Sequence record: PZ445449.1
Length of the DNA stretch: 64,000 nt
Origin: a phage
Strand: one strand, 5' to 3'
Positions 483 to 40,991 of the stretch are shown here, in pieces (the first letter of the stretch is position 1; each line of letters opens with the position of its first letter). Both the position numbers and the translations under genes were made by a program. Below the pieces are notes generated by a model, which saw only the letters and a list, made by a program, of their open reading frames with translations, did not search any database and was not told where the DNA came from.

Positions 483-2554
483 TGGCAACAGCTGTTTTTA
501 AACCTTACCGTGATTACTCTACAATGGCTGCACAGTTTCATTACCGCACAGTTCAGGATACTGCCGTTCCTGGTAGAGATTATGATCATGTTGAGGGCGA
601 TGTAACTATCCCAGTTGGGGCAACCAGTATTGAGATCCCAGTGGAAATTGTTGACAAATTACCCAACAGGTTGCCAAGAAGCTTCTTTATGGAGTTTTCA
701 TCAAAATCTCAAGGAGTGATGATTGGAACACAAAGGGCGAAATGTACAATAGTTTCAGATGAGAATCTTGACAGGATATCTTGGGATACTGTTGAGGAGA
801 GAATGTTTCACCCAAGATACTGGGTTACAACCACTCAGCAGACTGAAAGTACCTGTATTGTTGCAGATAACAACTGTTGTATTAACCGTTTAGTGTCAAG
901 AACATATGGAGGTATGGCTGGGTGCATTTGGGAAACAGTTGACAAGTATGACCATTTCGGTATTGGGTTTGATGATCACTATGAGATGAGAAACACCAAG
1001 CTTTGGTTCAGAATGTCAATAACCAACGCCAGCAACTTCTCCACTCCTGAAAAGATGATTATGACTGTAGACCTTGTTGATGGCACAATCATCTATGTTC
1101 CTTTAGCTCAATATGCTGTCAGCATCTCAGAGGATAAAAATGTTGCAGAAATTCATATTGATTTTGAGGACTGCGTCGGGATGGACCAGAACAACAACAT
1201 GATGGGTGTTGATCCTCGGCAGGTGAGAAGGATTTTAATACCACTTATGCCTAAAGACTGGGTAAGTAATAGCACAGATCCAAGAACGGAAAATGTAGAG
1301 TGTGAGTTGCGCCTAGATCTGCTTCAGCCAGACACAGGCTGGAAAATGATGCAACTTAATAATATCCAGGTGAGAGAGCACGACGTTGGGATCTGCACCG
1401 CATATGACGATATGTGGAACGTGTCCCCTTTAAGGGTGTTGAACAATATCAAGCGTCTGGGCTATACCGGAACCATAAACCATTATGTTGGTATGAGTCA
1501 TTATTATGACTACACATGGTCAGGAACCCAATGGTCTATAAACAGAACAGGAGCGCTAAACGCTGCAGCTTATAAATGGCATGATGATTTTATGTACAAT
1601 GCCAAACGACATAACTTCGACGTTATGCAATCTGTAAGTTTTGAGCTTTTCAGCGATGCCTGCCCGTTGGAATGGACCCAAAGAGACTGGAACGATAACT
1701 ACGCTAAAACAGGGTATACACCTTGTAGCTACCTCCTGTCTCCAACCATTGAAGAGGGTATGAATTTCCTTACTGCAGTATTTAAGAATTTTGCATCAGC
1801 CGCTATGAGAAACAACCTGCCAGTGATTATGCAGGTTGGTGAACCGTGGTGGTGGTACAATACCGATACTCGTAGACCTTGTATTTATGATTACCCTACA
1901 AAACAGGCGTTTTATGATGAGACAGGCGAGTATGCATTAGATATTGGGACTATTGACGATCCTAAAACTGGCGGTGTTTACGATAAGTATGTAGCATTTT
2001 GTCGTGGTAAGCTTGGCGCTCGTATTGCGGCTATTTCAAAGGCAATAAAGGCACACGCTGCATCAGCTCAGATGACAGCTCTACTGTTTTTCCCAACCAT
2101 TATGGAAACCGAGCTTACGCAAAAGCTTAACCTTGCTGACCAATATAAAAAGGAAGCAGGTGCTCTTGATTTCTTCTGCACCGAGTGCTACGATTGGGTG
2201 ATGCAGGGAGGTATTGAAAAGGCAAAAGAGTCTGTAAACATACCTATCGTTAAGTTAGGTTGGCAACCGTCTGAAATACAATACCTTGCAGGGTTCGTTC
2301 CTAGTAAAGAGCTTGCTCCGGTATATGGTTACGACCCAACCAGGAATTACCAAGAATTTTTATGGAGATGTATTTGCGGAAACATGGCAACTATAGAGTA
2401 TAGATATCCTGAGGTAAAACAGTATGTGTGGGCATACCCGCAAGTAATGTCTGACAGCATCACTGTTACCGCTAGAGATTCTACCGTGCTTCATATGGGG
2501 CAGGTTGCTCTGAAAGGGTATGTAGAAGATGTTGTCCCGCCAGACTTCTCATAA
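482..2554 (+). CDS. virion structural protein (tail/baseplate-associated), N-terminal Calx-beta-like motif
   Basis: 690-aa ORF, ATG overlapping upstream stop; N-terminal segment GRDYDHVEGDVTIPVGATSIEIPVEIVD resembles Calx-beta pattern; position upstream of tail fibres. Confidence 0.6.
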   Translation: MATAVFKPYRDYSTMAAQFHYRTVQDTAVPGRDYDHVEGDVTIPVGATSIEIPVEIVDKLPNRLPRSFFMEFSSKSQGVMIGTQRAKCTIVSDENLDRISWDTVEERMFHPRYWVTTTQQTESTCIVADNNCCINRLVSRTYGGMAGCIWETVDKYDHFGIGFDDHYEMRNTKLWFRMSITNASNFSTPEKMIMTVDLVDGTIIYVPLAQYAVSISEDKNVAEIHIDFEDCVGMDQNNNMMGVDPRQVRRILIPLMPKDWVSNSTDPRTENVECELRLDLLQPDTGWKMMQLNNIQVREHDVGICTAYDDMWNVSPLRVLNNIKRLGYTGTINHYVGMSHYYDYTWSGTQWSINRTGALNAAAYKWHDDFMYNAKRHNFDVMQSVSFELFSDACPLEWTQRDWNDNYAKTGYTPCSYLLSPTIEEGMNFLTAVFKNFASAAMRNNLPVIMQVGEPWWWYNTDTRRPCIYDYPTKQAFYDETGEYALDIGTIDDPKTGGVYDKYVAFCRGKLGARIAAISKAIKAHAASAQMTALLFFPTIMETELTQKLNLADQYKKEAGALDFFCTECYDWVMQGGIEKAKESVNIPIVKLGWQPSEIQYLAGFVPSKELAPVYGYDPTRNYQEFLWRCICGNMATIEYRYPEVKQYVWAYPQVMSDSITVTARDSTVLHMGQVALKGYVEDVVPPDFS

Positions 2555-2566
2555 TCAGGAGATAAA

Positions 2567-3607
2567 ATGTCAAAACCTAGTTTTCCATTAGAGATTTGGG
2601 CAGAGGAGGATCAGGTTCTGCCTAACACCCACAGACAGAACAGGCTACGCCCGATTGATGATTTGTGGAGAAAAGGTTGGGATCTTGGTCAAAAGCCCTC
2701 ATGTGAAGAACTTAACTATATTTTCAATATGCTCGGGACTTGGGCAAAATACATCGCTGACGAGCAGATCCCCGCTCAAGAAGGCCGTTATCTGGTACGT
2801 GATAATAACTTGAGTGATCTTTTGAACATTCCTGTTGCCCGTAGAAACCTTGGGATTATTACTAAGGAAGAGGCAGACGCCAGGTATGTAAAAGTTACAG
2901 GTGATACAATGACAGGCCCATTGGGTTTGCAACGTATCAACTTTAAAGCTGCCGAGTCAGATAAGGCTTGGATAGAGACAACTATTGGCCCAGATAAGAC
3001 AACTCTCGACTTTGGGTTAAGTGATAATACCGGGTCGTTTGATGATGGTGGTACATCTACAGTGGATGCGTTCCGTTGGAGATTCCAGCCAACTCAGCCG
3101 GATATTAATCCAGAGTTCACTTTGATGTACCTTAACGCGATCACGGCTAACCGTGCGCTGTTGAAAGTGGTAGGCAATGTTGAAGTTGTCGATAACATGA
3201 GGTGCAATAACCTTACTATCAGCAATACAGCGACATTCACCAACTGTAATGTGGCTAGTCAGTTGACGGCTGGGTCAGTGTATGTTAATGGTGGTGCAAG
3301 TTGTGACAGTATGGTTGTAAGAAGCCAGCACTGTGTTGTCGGTAACAGAAATGTGGTTCGCTCTGTGAACGGAGTGACGGCTAACGGTAACGGTGATGTA
3401 ACGATCACTATCCCGCAGACAGGTGTGCAAGACATCAGAATCGGTGCAAGACTTGTTGACGGCGTTTCCGAATCTCCAATTCGCAACGGCTACGTTGTCA
3501 CAGGCTGGCATTTCGGTGACAAAAAAGAGATGCGTGGTTCAACCTACTGGGCAGGACCCTTACAAAAACTTGTAAATGGTCAATGGATCACTGTTAATTA
3601 TGCATAG
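2567..3607 (+). CDS. tail fibre protein, paralog 1
   Basis: 346 aa; RBS AGGAG upstream; N-terminus (PLEIWA..W..GW) and C-terminus (QKLVNGQWITVNYA) shared with ORF 4619-5665; Gly/Asn/Thr/Val-rich beta-rich middle. Confidence 0.7.
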   Translation: MSKPSFPLEIWAEEDQVLPNTHRQNRLRPIDDLWRKGWDLGQKPSCEELNYIFNMLGTWAKYIADEQIPAQEGRYLVRDNNLSDLLNIPVARRNLGIITKEEADARYVKVTGDTMTGPLGLQRINFKAAESDKAWIETTIGPDKTTLDFGLSDNTGSFDDGGTSTVDAFRWRFQPTQPDINPEFTLMYLNAITANRALLKVVGNVEVVDNMRCNNLTISNTATFTNCNVASQLTAGSVYVNGGASCDSMVVRSQHCVVGNRNVVRSVNGVTANGNGDVTITIPQTGVQDIRIGARLVDGVSESPIRNGYVVTGWHFGDKKEMRGSTYWAGPLQKLVNGQWITVNYA

Positions 3608-3621
3608 ATCGGAGGACTAGC

Positions 3622-4206
3622 ATGAAAATACTTCAAGAGTTTAAACTTTACCAACCGGGATCTGGCGAATACCACTCCAACAAGGAAACCAAGGAGCTGA
3701 CCCCTCAAGAGGTCGAGGATTACACCGCATACACTGGGTATTTTTTACGTAATGATGATGGTGATTGGTATGTGCAGTCACGAACATTACGACAAGAAAA
3801 TCCAGGGTGTATCTTCCTACTTGTTGACGAGAAGGGAATTCTTAAGACATCTACAGAAGAACCTGATGCCTTATGGCCTGCTCCAGGTCTTCGTGTGGTT
3901 ATCGCCAAAAAAGAAGAGGTACCAGAAAACATTATGCTTCACCACGACGCTTTGCGTTTAGTTGGTGATGAATTTGTCACAGACAATGAATTCTTTGTTC
4001 AACAGGCAGAGGGTGTCATAGAGACAGAACTTGCTTGGGCTACTGCTAGAATTGGTGCCTATCAAGACATGATTGACCTTGAATATGATCTTACTGATGA
4101 CCAGAAACGTAACATCAGAGATTTGAAAATGTACAGGGTAAAACTTCTTGAAATAGATACATCTAAAGCCCCTGACATTTTCTTCCCGGAGCGACCTACC
4201 CTCTAA
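3622..4206 (+). CDS. tail fibre assembly / chaperone-like protein
   Basis: 194 aa directly downstream of a tail fibre gene; C-terminal ...DIFFPERP resembles the conserved end of tail fibre assembly proteins. Confidence 0.5.
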   Translation: MKILQEFKLYQPGSGEYHSNKETKELTPQEVEDYTAYTGYFLRNDDGDWYVQSRTLRQENPGCIFLLVDEKGILKTSTEEPDALWPAPGLRVVIAKKEEVPENIMLHHDALRLVGDEFVTDNEFFVQQAEGVIETELAWATARIGAYQDMIDLEYDLTDDQKRNIRDLKMYRVKLLEIDTSKAPDIFFPERPTL

Positions 4207-4217
4207 GAGGAGGTGTT

Positions 4218-4532
4218 GTGGAGTTGGATTTGGCGGCATTGTACGGTATCTGCATGGGTACCGTTGTCCCAATCTGTGTATGGGCTTTCAACCAGTGGCA
4301 CACCAAATGGAAAGGCATTTCCAAGAGGTTGGATGAGCTGGAGAAAGACCTCATCTTAGTGAAAAACAGTATGGTTACAAAAGATAAACTTGATTCCGTT
4401 ATAGAGACCCGGTTAAGCAAGCTAGAGGCCGATATTAACGACCTTAAGCAGGATGTCAGGACAGATGTCTCCGGCATCAGAGCCGATGTACAAAAGATTT
4501 TGCACATGCTCGTAGAGCATAGTAAAAGGTAA
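4218..4532 (+). CDS. small membrane protein with coiled-coil region
   Basis: 104 aa, GTG start with AGGAGG 6 nt upstream; hydrophobic N-terminal helix then heptad-like charged region. Confidence 0.45.
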   Translation: MELDLAALYGICMGTVVPICVWAFNQWHTKWKGISKRLDELEKDLILVKNSMVTKDKLDSVIETRLSKLEADINDLKQDVRTDVSGIRADVQKILHMLVEHSKR

Positions 4533-4541
4533 ACAAAGGTC

Positions 4542-4575
4542 AGAACGGAAAGGACTCCGTTCTTGCATTTTGTTC
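4542..4575 (+). terminator. intrinsic terminator
   Basis: Hairpin GAACGGA-aaggact-TCCGTTC followed by T-rich tract, after stop of 4218-4532. Confidence 0.5.
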
Positions 4576-4618
4576 CCTAAAGTGTTAAAATAGTCCTAAG
4601 GAATTTTCTCAGGAGAAC

Positions 4619-5665
4619 GTGATGACTAAACCAGTTATCCCTCTTGATATTTGGGCCAATCAGGATGTTGTGCTTGAAAATACGGGAGAGTTGAATAAGT
4701 CTCAACCAAAAAAAGAAGAGAGATTGAAAGGTTGGGATATGACACAAAGAGTGGCATGTGAAGTTGTTAACTTTGAACTTCACATGCTTTCTGCGTGGTT
4801 AAAGCATTTAACAGAAGATGTTGTCCCAGGATGGGATAATAGATTCTTAAGGGTCACTAATAATCTAGCAGACGTTCCAGACAAAGCTGCTGCACGTCAA
4901 GTTCTCAATGTATACTCGCCTGAAGAAATGGACGATCTGTATGTTGACAAGTCTGGAGACATAATGACTCAGACTCAAACTTTAGGCCTTCAAAGAATCG
5001 AGTTTGCATCTGCGTCAACAGACAATGCGGCAATATATACCACCATAACTCCAGACAAGACGACGATGGATTTCTGGATTATGGACAACATCGGTGGTGC
5101 TGACGGCACAGACCTTGATGATCCTTCTCACCAAATAGACGGGTTCCGTTGGAGATTTCAACCTTCTGGTGGGCAGCCTGTGTTTTCGGCTATGAAGCTC
5201 AATGCTATAACTGCCAACCGTGCAAGACTGGCCATCCAAGGAAATCTTGAATGCAACGATGCAAAAAGTTCCTCTGCAAATGCCAATGCGGTCACGATAC
5301 CAAGAGCCACTGTTAACGGACAACAATCCTGCGGAAGCGCTCAAATAGGTGGAAGAGTTGATTGTAACGATGAAACAGTCAGGGGTCAATATGCAACAGT
5401 TGGTGGAAGAAACGTGGTCCGCAGGGTAAATGGTAACGGCGCAGACAGTAGTGGCAACCTTACTATCCCTATGCCCAGCAGAGGGGTTGATGATGTAAGG
5501 ATAGCAAACCGTTTCAAAACCACCTACAGAGAGTCAAGAGTCTACCCTGGACATGTGATGTGCTCTGGTAACTACGCTTATAAACACCCTTATCAAGGTG
5601 ATTACTGGACAGGTGCTATCCAAAAACTTGTAAATGGTCAATGGATCACTATATCTTATGCTTAA
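4619..5665 (+). CDS. tail fibre protein, paralog 2
   Basis: 348 aa; shares N- and C-terminal blocks with 2567-3607 (C-term QKLVNGQWITISYA); identical 30-nt stretch at 3' ends of both genes. Confidence 0.7.
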   Translation: MMTKPVIPLDIWANQDVVLENTGELNKSQPKKEERLKGWDMTQRVACEVVNFELHMLSAWLKHLTEDVVPGWDNRFLRVTNNLADVPDKAAARQVLNVYSPEEMDDLYVDKSGDIMTQTQTLGLQRIEFASASTDNAAIYTTITPDKTTMDFWIMDNIGGADGTDLDDPSHQIDGFRWRFQPSGGQPVFSAMKLNAITANRARLAIQGNLECNDAKSSSANANAVTIPRATVNGQQSCGSAQIGGRVDCNDETVRGQYATVGGRNVVRRVNGNGADSSGNLTIPMPSRGVDDVRIANRFKTTYRESRVYPGHVMCSGNYAYKHPYQGDYWTGAIQKLVNGQWITISYA

Positions 5666-5676
5666 AAAGAGGGTAA

Positions 5677-5943
5677 ATGAAACTAACTCAGTTTTTATGG
5701 GGACTGGTTGCGGCATCTGATGACCCTACGAAAGTGTCCCAAACTAAGCTATGGTCGAACATAGGCATGGCGGTGATGACTGGGGTGTTTATTCATATGG
5801 GGTATAATGATACGCTTCCTGAATGGTATGCGTGGATATACGCGCCTTCGGTAGCTTGCCCCCAGCTTATTAGCAAATTCATCTCGCTCCGGTGGGGTTG
5901 CCAGCACCCTGACCACGTTAAAAACGAAGAGCAAAAAGCTTAA
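5677..5943 (+). CDS. hypothetical small protein
   Basis: 88 aa, ATG with AGAGGG RBS; between tail fibre genes. Confidence 0.5.
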   Translation: MKLTQFLWGLVAASDDPTKVSQTKLWSNIGMAVMTGVFIHMGYNDTLPEWYAWIYAPSVACPQLISKFISLRWGCQHPDHVKNEEQKA

Positions 5944-5952
5944 GGAGAAATC

Positions 5953-7698
5953 ATGGCGCAAGACATGACAAGCTTTGAGCAGGCGGTAGATCAAGTAATT
6001 GTTGATTCTGAACGTTTGCACCTGATTGTCAACGGTAACGCTGTGGATGAAGTTGTCGTAGAGGATGGGACCACCATCCCTACGGTACGAAAAGCCATGC
6101 TTGACACCCTTTATTTTAAAACGCCACCGATCCCTTGGGCGTATGGTGCATCCACAACAGTTTTTAACCAGCTGTATGAGTTTAAAGGGGATACAGGCCC
6201 TCAGTGGTGGTACGCTCCCGCAGCATCAAAATCTAACCCGGTTAGAATGCCAGCAGATCCTTCACAATCTCCAAACTGGAGATTATACACCGACTCTGCA
6301 GTAATGGCAAAATACTACGCAAAACTTAACAGCCCAAGGTTCGAAGGTGACCCGCGAGTACCTACACCTCCAATGGACGATAAGTCAGAGTCCATAGCAA
6401 ACACAGAGTTTGTTGTTGACTATGTTGATAGCATATTTGAAGCCATGGAGGGGATGAAAGTTACTGTAGGGTCTTTGGTGGTAAAAGGTCTTACAGAACT
6501 CGCCAACACCATAGTTGGGGGCACCCTTACCTTACATGGACCTGTTAATGGAGCAGATTCTACTGCACGCTTCAGGAACCTAATCCTCACGGCAAATACT
6601 TCTACACTTACTTTTGCGTGGAGCGATCCTAAGCATACAGACTGGAGAAGTACAGAGCTGCAACCTCATGAAGTGTCCACCCACAGGGTTATAGCTGACA
6701 CTATAACTTCTGGGAAACCAGTGGCTAATAATAACGATGTGCATTTTGATGGTCTGGGTAATAACTTTTTTGACTACGTGTACATTCGTGGTAATGCCAT
6801 GAAGGCAGCAACCGAACCGACATTGCAGGTCGATGGGACCACCAGGGTTAAGAACCTTGAGGTGACAGGTACCGTTACAGGGATAACATACTCTGTCGAT
6901 GGCACCATGATCTACCCTAGCTATATTGAAAGCACGGGTGATGCATTGATAAATGGCGATTTGGAGGTTGGCGGGTCTGTAGTTATTCGAGGTACAGCCT
7001 CTATCCAAAATATAGCTCTGAATACTCTAAGAGTCAATGAGCGTGCAACTTTTGAAGGAGAAGGGCTTACAGCCAATAAAGGTACAATTACCGAGCTAAC
7101 CACCACCACTTTAACTGCAACAACTGCAAACTCTGAAAACTGCAACATTACCAGAAACTTGCAGGTAAATGGAGATGTTAGTTTAAACGCCGCAGGGACT
7201 GGCACCACCCACCTTCACAACCTTGAAATATCCGGCACAGTGACCGGGTGGCTGCCAGACTTCTCTAATGTCAACTTTGTCTGTAATGGCATTAACTCCA
7301 GTGGTAAGATAACCACCTCTCAAGAAATTGAGGCGGGTAAAACCATTACTGCCCCCACTTTCCACGCAGGAAAGGTAGATTTTGACTTAGAGGAGGTTGA
7401 CGCGTCCAGTGGGACATGGACACCTAACGGGCAGGCCAGCATGTATGTTGTCCACGCGAAAGGGGATTTTACAATAGGACAGTGGCCTGGGACATCAGCG
7501 GAAGATAAACCTTATCCATTCACTGCAGTTATCTATGTCATTCAGGATGCTGTAGGTCACAACGTGACTTTGCACGATAAGTATGCTATCCTGTCGGCAA
7601 CACCTGTTATTAACAACAAGGCTAACAGTGTTACCTTGCTGCAATTAACGTATTGTGGTGTTGGTGATATTGTAGACGTAGTAATTGCACAACGTTAA
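5953..7698 (+). CDS. tail fibre / tailspike-like protein with beta-helix repeats
   Basis: 581 aa; repeated LEVTGTVTG / LEISGTVTG / LQVNGDVSL units typical of fibrous beta-structure; RBS AAGGAG. Confidence 0.65.
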   Translation: MAQDMTSFEQAVDQVIVDSERLHLIVNGNAVDEVVVEDGTTIPTVRKAMLDTLYFKTPPIPWAYGASTTVFNQLYEFKGDTGPQWWYAPAASKSNPVRMPADPSQSPNWRLYTDSAVMAKYYAKLNSPRFEGDPRVPTPPMDDKSESIANTEFVVDYVDSIFEAMEGMKVTVGSLVVKGLTELANTIVGGTLTLHGPVNGADSTARFRNLILTANTSTLTFAWSDPKHTDWRSTELQPHEVSTHRVIADTITSGKPVANNNDVHFDGLGNNFFDYVYIRGNAMKAATEPTLQVDGTTRVKNLEVTGTVTGITYSVDGTMIYPSYIESTGDALINGDLEVGGSVVIRGTASIQNIALNTLRVNERATFEGEGLTANKGTITELTTTTLTATTANSENCNITRNLQVNGDVSLNAAGTGTTHLHNLEISGTVTGWLPDFSNVNFVCNGINSSGKITTSQEIEAGKTITAPTFHAGKVDFDLEEVDASSGTWTPNGQASMYVVHAKGDFTIGQWPGTSAEDKPYPFTAVIYVIQDAVGHNVTLHDKYAILSATPVINNKANSVTLLQLTYCGVGDIVDVVIAQR

Positions 7699-40699: not shown

Positions 40700-40991
40700 A
40701 AACATCACCCCAGCAGGGTTCTTAAAAGTATACCGTGAACTGCTATATACTACAGAGGACAGTGTTCTAGAGTATCCAGAATATCTTTTGCTGTATAAGT
40801 ATCTGCAGGAGGCTGGTGAAAATCTGCCAGTTAGTGCAGAAGGTGGTCCAAACTGGATATACAGCGCATGGAGAAAGGTTGACATTCTCCCCGACCCAGG
40901 TAAAGATATGGTAGTTTGGCAGCTTATTAACAACATCGGGATTTCAATCTTTGATGAAGCTGTTAAAATATATTTTGAACTTGACGATTAA
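40689..40991 (+). CDS. hypothetical protein
   Basis: ATG 40689 after AGGAGAAG. Confidence 0.45.
   Translation: MKTENITPAGFLKVYRELLYTTEDSVLEYPEYLLLYKYLQEAGENLPVSAEGGPNWIYSAWRKVDILPDPGKDMVVWQLINNIGISIFDEAVKIYFELDD

Follow-up and report, generated by a model that had tools for sequence, protein, structure and literature searches.

Two paralogous short tail fibre genes of an rV5-like phage: evidence for one old duplication and of recurrent gene conversion at their 3' ends

The two paralogous short tail fibre genes of an rV5-like phage, here called A and B, very probably encode fibres of the phage Mu GpS type which derive from one duplication, are served by a single tail fibre assembly chaperone (Tfa) and have been subject to recurrent gene conversion at their 3' ends. 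The analysis was carried out on a stretch of 64,000 nt (sequence record PZ445449.1), referred to as the window. It should be said that the paralogue pair and its chaperone are already known from rV5-like phages, and are real and ordinary; finding them again adds little because it restates the published rV5-like annotation. New here are the single old duplication, the recurrent 3' gene conversion and the location of B in the slot of a 157-aa gene.

The window comes from a member of Vequintavirus (rV5-like coliphages), with the locus showing about 99% nucleotide identity to more than 100 Vequintavirus genomes in GenBank, and the locus is the short tail fibre module of an rV5-like myovirus of this genus. 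Annotation comparison gave a gene-by-gene correspondence to rV5 gp33 to gp29, with the same genes, order and sizes as gp33/gp32/gp31/gp30/gp29 and nothing of substance differing, and the ORF map of the window was matched in synteny to the annotations of rV5 and CarlMeissner (fibre A, Tfa, 104-aa ORF, fibre B, 88-aa ORF and a 581-aa fibre). The features of the locus are as follows:

2567..3607, plus strand: short tail fibre paralogue A, 346 aa, orthologue of rV5 gp33 (ORF; annotated "short tail fiber protein", rv5_gp033)
2567..2917, plus strand: predicted N-terminal baseplate-attachment joint and linker of A, residues 1-117 (phiTE 9cuy profile match)
3401..3604, plus strand: predicted C-terminal tip domain of A, residues 279-346, Mu GpS type (5yvq profile match)
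3563..3592, plus strand: first copy of the 30-nt tract, codons QKLVNGQWIT, probable gene conversion footprint (identical to 5621-5650)
3622..4206, plus strand: Tfa tail fibre assembly chaperone, 194 aa, orthologue of rV5 gp32 (PF02413 Caudo_TAP, phrog_136)
4218..4532, plus strand: 104-aa single-pass membrane protein, rV5 gp31 (N-terminal transmembrane segment, phrog_5345)
4542..4563, plus strand: terminator-like hairpin followed by a T-rich run (consensus scan; lies in the one intergenic gap of any size here)
4563..4592, plus strand: promoter-like element ahead of B, TTGCAT-17 nt-TAAAAT, with TGTTAAAATA at 4583-4592 (conservation; putative function)
4622..5665, plus strand: short tail fibre paralogue B, 347 aa, orthologue of rV5 gp30 (ORF; rv5_gp030)
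5621..5650, plus strand: second copy of the 30-nt tract (identical to 3563-3592)
5677..5943, plus strand: 88-aa small protein, rV5 gp29, annotated as a membrane protein (phrog_1322; orthologues aligned; conserved neighbour)

By tblastn, fibre A is 99.4-100% identical in amino acids to its counterparts in Vequintavirus genomes including V5 (99.4%), and fibre B 95.7-100% across the genus (99.4% to V5); both match the tail fiber family phrog_4465 (E=2e-171 for A, E=4e-166 for B), while Pfam has no family for either fibre or for the small ORFs of the relatives. A preliminary description of this DNA had placed the two ORFs at 2567-3607 and 4619-5665; both are present, with the correction that the second most likely starts at ATG 4622 and not at GTG 4619, there being an AGGAG 6 nt upstream and the same start in the annotations of rV5 and CarlMeissner. 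The two genes said to lie between the fibres were also found, namely the Caudo_TAP gene (PF02413, 3622-4206) and the 104-aa ORF, whose product has one hydrophobic segment by hydropathy (residues 5-23) and an otherwise charged, helix-like sequence, and which is kept in single-copy relatives (orthologues were aligned from Seunavirus, TH18 and metagenomic relatives). For the 88-aa protein, a simple hydropathy scan at a strict threshold identified no hydrophobic segment.

A and B are homologous end to end (43% amino acid identity, BLASTP E=7e-94), which bears out their description as paralogous tail fibre genes of receptor-binding type, agrees with the annotation of rV5 gp33/gp30 and is close to the 42.3% identity published for the rV5 pair (Kropinski et al., 2013; PMC3606486). 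By segment, in A numbering, identity is 43% at residues 1-60, 35% at 61-117, 57% at 118-205, 32% at 206-285, 33% at 286-332 and 86% at 333-346. Two parts of the preliminary picture have to be given up: the N-terminal block held to be conserved is only average (43% over residues 1-60), and the beta-rich centre held to have diverged is, at residues 118-205, the best-conserved large segment (57%), so that the centre is not the most diverged part. Only the last 14 residues stand out in conservation. The lengths are near-equal in all lineages (346 aa for A and 347-354 aa for B), and the proteins are colinear with short indels only. In rV5, gp30, gp32 and gp33 were all found in virions by mass spectrometry (Kropinski et al., 2013; PMC3606486); with both fibres and the chaperone in the virion proteome, the possibility raised earlier that one copy is not expressed or not a virion component does not hold. 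A pseudogene or redundant copy was likewise rejected, both ORFs being intact in all two-copy lineages and both proteins being in the proteome.

Comparison of family profiles with PDB sequences suggests that A and B are compact fibres of the Mu GpS type. Residues 1-117 match residues 1-120 of the short tail fibre of Pectobacterium phage phiTE (9cuy; domain E=1.3e-27), and the single sequences also match 9cuy chain c (E=1.4e-19 for A and E=1.3e-9 for B). In the cryo-EM structure of phiTE, residues 3-92 of the short fibre form a globular joint bound to wedge 1 (PMC11972413). Residues 279-346 match residues 438-503 of Mu tail fibre protein S in complex with its chaperone (5yvq; domain E=5e-7, whole-sequence E=1e-13), and residues 75-191 weakly match GpS 150-261. 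In single-sequence searches of the PDB, A matched 5yvq at E=2e-6 and B, 43% identical to A end to end, gave no 5yvq match. The AlphaFold2 monomer models (mean pLDDT 59.5 for A and 59.4 for B) were too poor for fold arguments, and the domain boundaries therefore rest on the sequence profiles; a Foldseek search with a low-confidence model had 5yvq_A as its top match (E=4e-6) and re-found only Mu GpS and phiTE. These matches are consistent with a fibre in which an N-terminal joint of about 90 residues would plug into the baseplate wedge, followed by a beta-rich shaft and by a small C-terminal tip domain closing with the strand P/A-L/I-QKLVNGQWIT.

The Mu pair GpS and GpU/TfaMu (5yvq) has a homologous tip ending in a ..QK.(I/V)NG.W..V strand, weaker similarity in the shaft and, as for A in the window, a Caudo_TAP chaperone gene that directly follows the fibre gene. 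However, Mu S is longer (504 aa against 346 aa) and has an unrelated N-terminal attachment domain, and Mu has a single S gene whose variable 3' part is switched together with U by inversion of the G segment, whereas the window has two complete fibre genes fixed in direct orientation with one chaperone. The phiTE fibre (9cuy/9mjn), from the same subfamily Vequintavirinae, is homologous in joint and tip, but it is a single 554-aa protein with a long coiled coil and Ig-like domains, in a phage that is flagellotropic and LPS-independent (PMC11972413). HHpred similarity of rV5 gp30 and gp33 to T4 gp12 (1PDI) has been reported (Kropinski et al., 2013; PMC3606486). This homology was not recovered by our PDB sequence or profile searches, where no gp12 chain was among the matches at E<=1 (single sequences) or E<=0.1 (profile). 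T4 gp12 offers a functional analogy only, being a baseplate fibre with the LPS core as its presumed terminal receptor, and its chaperone is gp57A, not a Tfa/Caudo_TAP protein. The published description closest to ours is the BASEL annotation "short tail fiber protein x2 + tail fiber chaperone" (Maffei et al., 2021; PMC8594841), where the genes are given as homologues of Mu GpS/GpU.

Tfa matches PF02413 Caudo_TAP over residues 121-192 (E=9e-12; 45.7 bits against a cutoff of 22.1 bits) and phrog_136 (E=2e-36), and is 100% identical to the rV5 chaperone. Its gene begins 14 nt past the stop codon of A, while the next gene downstream of B is the 88-aa ORF and not a Caudo_TAP gene. Each of the 208 phage records matched by Tfa in tblastn has it at a single place. 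By analogy with Mu, this single Tfa (gp32), encoded right after A, would act on both fibres. According to the summary of North et al. (2019) in PMC9608196, TfaMu binds the distal fibre and stays in virions; Tfa may in the same way nucleate trimer folding from the distal tip and remain on the virion. We infer that the common C-terminus is selected for by the shared chaperone. In the profile, however, conservation of the C-terminal strand extends from Mu to phiTE, and at the protein level ordinary structural constraint accounts for it without the chaperone.

The relationships of the two genes point to a pair that arose by one old duplication in the ancestor of the two-copy lineage. Neighbour-joining trees on p-distances with codon bootstrap, including metagenomic two-copy relatives and few outgroups, gave over alignment columns 1-330 an A clade (100%), a B clade (100%) and a grouping of A with B (100%) to the exclusion of the single-copy Seunavirus, TH18 and L012; the split into A and B clades is clean throughout the 5' 80% of the genes across the metagenomic two-copy relatives. 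After the duplication, the 5' four-fifths of A and B would have diverged independently. Horizontal acquisition of B from an unsampled close relative, in place of a duplication, is a less likely origin of the pair. The single-copy relatives Seunavirus (SSE121, GAP31 and PVP-SE1) and TH18 have the same module order, with a short fibre, Tfa and the 104-aa gene followed by an approximately 89-aa gene and an approximately 600-aa fibre, but only one short fibre, 41-45% identical to A by tblastn and 47-51% by global alignment. A retains the ancestral place directly upstream of the chaperone gene, and synteny comparison places B in the slot which in these relatives is occupied by a gene for a 157-aa multi-pass membrane protein. 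This protein is assigned in L012 to PF26221 (Phage_phiTE_239) by precomputed annotation, and no homologue or remnant of it was found in the window.

According to the duplication model, B would have been placed at the former position of the 157-aa gene together with its own terminator and late-promoter motif. A terminator is annotated in phage Murica beneath the region of the hairpin at 4542..4563. The promoter-like element is kept in the window and in the relatives L006, L009, L010 and L011 amid differing intergenic sequence, and resembles the published rV5 late-gene motif TggTAaAAtA; the string TGNTAAAATA occurs four times in the window against 0.9 expected. The element escaped a generic sigma-70 scan, since only three of the six positions of its -35 agree, and was recognised from its conservation among the relatives and from the late-gene motif.

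At the 3' ends the picture is different, and here A and B have very probably undergone repeated paralogue-to-paralogue gene conversion. The 30-nt stretch shared by the two genes was correctly noted in the preliminary description: CAAAAACTTGTAAATGGTCAATGGATCACT occurs exactly twice in the 64-kb window against none expected in shuffles. It represents 10 consecutive identical codons (permutation p=0.0008), whereas over the whole gene the same codon is used at only 35% of the identical degenerate residues. That this identity stems from chance, codon bias or selection acting on the RNA or DNA sequence, in place of recombination, is highly improbable. The tract is short, and the peptide QKLVNGQW is strongly constrained, so that the amino acids must match; but in the single-copy relatives and in the sister lineage an identical or similar peptide is specified by other codons, which argues against a universal nucleotide-level constraint or a strong codon bias, and a functional element at the nucleotide level within the 30-mer was rejected for the same reason. 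Besides the permutation result, the A and B genes of L006 have 29 nt in common and both depart from the window at three shared synonymous sites, thus repeating the identity between paralogues with three different codons. Far longer identical tracts are found in L010 (110/110 nt, 33 consecutive identical codons, p<5e-5), and L011 also has a run of 13 consecutive identical codons (p=0.006). In the last 79 alignment columns, A and B of L009, L010 and L011 cluster together at 100% (neighbour-joining). The window-type block GTAAATGGTCAATGGATCAC is present in B of the window lineage (L006 and L019 excepted) and in B of the L009-type sister lineage, where A reads GTCAACGGACAGTGGATWACC at this site. 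Most parsimoniously, the 30 identical nucleotides of the window are the footprint of one conversion from B to A. The earlier proposal that both conserved ends are available for homologous exchange is thus upheld by the comparative evidence for the 3' end, but not for the 5' end, where A and B form separate clades and no gene conversion was seen. Published accounts of the rV5 paralogues call them "very similar", without 3' gene conversion or replacement of the 157-aa gene (PMC3606486; PMC8594841), and nothing specific on gene conversion in these paralogues was found in the literature, which is weak evidence of absence.

One possible reason for keeping both copies, on the doubtful side, is dual specificity, as proposed in the preliminary description and by Kropinski et al. 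(2013), with A and B binding two putative receptors such as two LPS core chemotypes and so widening the host range. In the window and L006, the tip regions of A and B (residues 286-332) are only 33% identical; A and Seunavirus read GW.FG.KKE.RG at a place where B has a different loop, SGNYAYKHPYQG. Virions contain both proteins, and in the Mu homologue it is the C-terminal part of S that determines host range. Different specificities are plausible in the window lineage, where the unlike tips may lead to distinct fine specificities for the LPS core. In the sister lineage (L009, L010, L011 and IMG/VR relatives), however, both copies are kept with tips that are 79-87% identical in amino acids, and in L010 partly identical at the nucleotide level; with nearly the same tip on both copies, different specificity is not a general reason for keeping the pair. 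Moreover, the genetics of LL12 and the BASEL phages points to a single terminal receptor in the LPS core that they have in common, and little or no allelic variation is seen in the paralogues (Maffei et al., 2021; PMC8594841), both of which sit uneasily with two specificities.

A structural sub-functionalisation, in which A and B would differ in baseplate place, role, partners or timing of deployment while perhaps binding the same receptor, is also possible, and we put it forward tentatively. The A/B differences consistent in every lineage are those of the N-terminal joint and the shaft, which sort strictly by orthology: residues 1-60 are 38-43% identical between A and B in five out of five genomes, with the joint of A ancestral (60-65% identity to single-copy relatives, 70 bits to phiTE) and that of B derived (45-47%, 37 bits). 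B has its own promoter-like element, and both copies persist even where the tips have been homogenised. On the other hand, the phiTE baseplate has one short fibre site per wedge (PMC11972413), and the N-terminal divergence could be neutral drift if both joints still fit the same site. Mixed trimers of A and B, with nucleation at the C-terminal strand that they share and by the one Tfa, would fit the near-equal lengths, the colinearity, the common C-terminus and the one chaperone. They are nevertheless very unlikely: the known fibres of Mu/P2 type are homotrimers, shaft indels and tips only 33% identical would strain a three-fold beta structure, and the two genes are in separate transcription contexts. 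A broader proposal, somewhat unlikely as it stands, is that A and B are baseplate fibres with distinct joints that both need the one chaperone for folding, whose C-termini evolve in concert via recurrent conversion, and that the pair is not mainly a matter of two receptors. If this were true, phage receptor-binding proteins would here show concerted evolution under a chaperone constraint, with conversion overwriting the whole tip domain in some lineages and so resetting specificity.

The short fibres matter since the terminal LPS-core receptor step sets host range, and since Vequintaviruses are frequent candidates for therapy and biocontrol, with E. coli O157 and other strains as targets. The locus provides a small concrete example of tail fibre paralogues which exchange sequence within one genome: recurrent 3' conversion can go as far as replacing a whole tip, but it leaves the N-terminal joints distinct. 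This suggests that engineered tip swaps may be tolerated downstream of approximately residue 285, provided that the last 14 residues are kept, and that two fibre copies do not necessarily mean two specificities.

The locus encodes two virion fibres of the phage Mu S type with a phiTE-type baseplate joint and a single chaperone gene, and its history comprises one old duplication and recurrent conversion at the 3' ends. More than 100 GenBank genomes of rV5-like coliphages (genus Vequintavirus in the Vequintavirinae) match positions 2400-6000, the best of them with 98.8-99.3% nucleotide identity. The annotation of BASEL phage CarlMeissner labels the first and fourth of the five genes short tail fiber protein, the second tail fiber chaperone, and the third and fifth hypothetical protein; their counterparts in the rV5 reference are, in order, gp33, gp32, gp31, gp30 and gp29. 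Both fibre ORFs of a preliminary description, together with the assembly-protein gene and the small membrane protein gene that it placed between them, were recovered in the ORF map, and the features of the locus are:

2567-3607: A, short tail fibre paralogue, 346 aa
3622-4206: Tfa, tail-fibre chaperone, Caudo_TAP domain (PF02413, E=9e-12)
4218-4532: 104-aa ORF, one hydrophobic segment (residues 5-23)
4542-4563: terminator-like hairpin in the gap upstream of B
4622-5665: B, short tail fibre paralogue, 347 aa

For B the annotated ATG at 4622, with AGGAG 6 nt upstream, was preferred over GTG at 4619. Upstream of A, a 690-aa gene (482-2554) shares with the N4-type non-contractile tail sheath protein its N-terminal and TIM-barrel domains (PF23844, PF23845) and has an additional weak Calx-beta match; a 2026 preprint ties this deacetylase-domain fibre to the NGR polysaccharide receptor. 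It should be noted that 16-21 GenBank records (MG0656xx) titled 'Campylobacter phage', with Campylobacter jejuni as host, share ~99% identity with the present locus of an E. coli Vequintavirus; these deposits look like contamination or mislabelled hosts.

The proposed paralogy of the fibres is borne out by an end-to-end BLASTP alignment (43% identity, E=7e-94). By segment (A numbering), amino acid identity is 43% for residues 1-60, 35% for 61-117, 57% for 118-205, 32% for 206-285, 33% for 286-332 and 86% for 333-346. The central beta-rich block, earlier described as diverged, is therefore the best-conserved large part, and of the supposedly conserved termini only the final 14 residues are set apart, the N-terminal block being no better than the whole. 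A second, shorter identical run, of 15 nt (GTTCCGTTGGAGATT, codons FRWR; 3065-3090 and 5138-5163), has a 20-nt identical A/B counterpart at nearly the same position in the metagenomic two-copy relative L006; it may stem from a further small conversion event or from strong constraint.

The 30-nt identity at the 3' ends was verified as CAAAAACTTGTAAATGGTCAATGGATCACT at 3563-3592 and 5621-5650, with no other site in the 64 kb even with three mismatches, and none in shuffled sequences. Where A and B have the same degenerate residue, the codon is also the same in only 35% of cases gene-wide; the tract holds 10 same-codon residues in a row (p=0.0008), and the related peptide in single-copy relatives uses other codons. 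In L006, A and B are identical over 29 nt at this site, with codons CTG, GTC and CAG vs CTT, GTA and CAA in the window, both copies having changed together. A and B of a sister lineage (L009, L010 and L011) agree at 79-87% of their last ~60 residues, and over the last 79 alignment columns they form one clade (100%) and do not group with their orthologues. L010 carries a 110/110-nt identical A/B tract with 33 identical codons (p<5e-5), and L011 a 30-nt identical run at a different position. An IUPAC scan of IMG/VR covering all synonymous versions of the tract peptide returned further genomes with intermediate states. These sequences mark the 30-nt tract as the trace of a gene conversion and show 3' conversion to be recurrent; chance and a nucleotide-level function of the 30-mer were rejected. 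The suggestion that conserved ends serve homologous exchange thus holds for the 3' end but not for the 5' end, where no conversion signal was found. B carries the block GTAAATGGTCAATGGATCAC both in the window lineage, L006 and L019 excepted, and in the sister lineage, whose A has GTCAACGGACAGTGGATWACC in its place, which argues that, most parsimoniously, the A tract of the window lineage was copied from B.

Searches with tblastn found two short-fibre copies only in Vequintavirus and a single copy in Seunavirus, TH18, Mydovirus-like Klebsiella phages, Phapecoctavirus and phi92-like phages. With B as query, a large protein collection yielded diverged proteins of its kind, 78% and 46-49% identical to it, and this two-copy locus is present on every one of their contigs (L006-L011). 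Neighbour joining with codon bootstrap (first 330 alignment columns, single-copy outgroups) recovered the A clade, the B clade and A+B each at 100%, which indicates one duplication that predates the genus as described. Single-copy relatives have the short fibre followed by Tfa, the 104-aa protein, a 157-aa multi-pass membrane protein, a ~89-aa protein and a ~600-aa fibre, with a trio of small membrane proteins lying inside the tail-fibre cluster. B in two-copy genomes sits exactly at the former site of the 157-aa gene, no homologue of which remains within the 64-kb window. In L012 the 157-aa protein is PF26221 (Phage_phiTE_239). In the sister lineage the small protein after B (88 aa in the window) has a 30-40-residue C-terminal extension of RYSD/YSD-like repeats.

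L002 5997-6470, L003 6020-6493, L004 5961-6434, L012 7958-8431: 157-aa gene between the 104-aa and ~89-aa ORFs
L009 7076-7432, L010 7067-7447, L011 6024-6404: extended small protein after B

The 89-nt gap ahead of B (4533-4621) is the only sizeable intergenic gap of the fibre cluster. Its hairpin is followed by the motif TTGCAT-17-TAAAAT / TGTTAAAATA (both within 4542-4592), which is kept in all two-copy lineages while the remaining spacer varies, and which resembles the published rV5 late-gene motif TggTAaAAtA; TGNTAAAATA has further + strand copies at 40961, 41285 and 53882.

A profile built from A, B and 28 homologues was run against the PDB. Its N-terminal part matches the first 120 residues of the Pectobacterium phage phiTE short tail fibre (9cuy; domain E=1.3e-27), in which cryo-EM shows residues 3-92 as a globular joint attached to the baseplate wedge 1 protein (PMC11972413). 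Residues 279-346 match the homologous tip of Mu tail fibre protein S (438-503; 5yvq, the Mu fibre in complex with its chaperone; whole-sequence E=1e-13), whereas the shaft likeness (75-191 vs Mu S 150-261) is weaker. AlphaFold2 monomer models of A and B were poor (pLDDT 59) and Foldseek recovered 5yvq and 9cuy again; PDB sequence and profile searches with A and B gave no match to T4 gp12. A linker motif, (R/F)L..-NL(A/S)D(V/L)-.K..AR.NL(G/D), occurs once per fibre (residues ~72-98; 2780-2860 and 4835-4915). In gp92, the short tail fibre of Pakpunavirus P7-1 (9zd7), it stands in at least 5 tandem repeats, and Mu GpS matches it near residues 81-117 and 150-175.

Searches with tblastn found one Tfa per genome. 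As summarised in PMC9608196, the variable N-terminal domain of TfaMu binds the distal fibre, its conserved C-terminal helices drive trimerisation, and the protein remains on the mature virion. We infer that one shared Tfa would fold both A and B, and that this common requirement, plus a structural role of the last strand, would keep the C-termini alike.

As to why both fibres are kept, the tips of A and B in the window lineage are only 33% identical, with the loop SGNYAYKHPYQG in B vs GWHFGDKKEMRG in A, and these unlike tips may give different fine specificity. The sister lineage speaks against dual specificity as a general reason, for it has kept A and B although their tips are closely similar. 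It is the N-terminal joint that always differs between A and B, being ancestral in A (60-65% identical to single-copy relatives) and derived in B (45-47%). Given this constant difference and the similar sister tips, distinct structural roles in the baseplate are favoured about as much as distinct receptors; A/B heterotrimers are possible but unlikely.

Kropinski et al. (2013; PMC3606486) described gp30 and gp33 as tail-fibre-like proteins, 42.3% identical, raised the possibility that they recognise two LPS chemotypes, and detected gp30, gp32 and gp33 among the virion proteins, which supports the reading of both fibres as virion components. The same fibre pair and chaperone were also described by Maffei et al. 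(PMC8594841). The pair is thus genuine but already on record: this is an ordinary, previously described phage module, which the preliminary description read correctly apart from the diverged centre. The modest additions made here, neither of which was found in the searchable literature, are that comparison across relatives supports concerted evolution of the 3' ends and that B has replaced the 157-aa gene.
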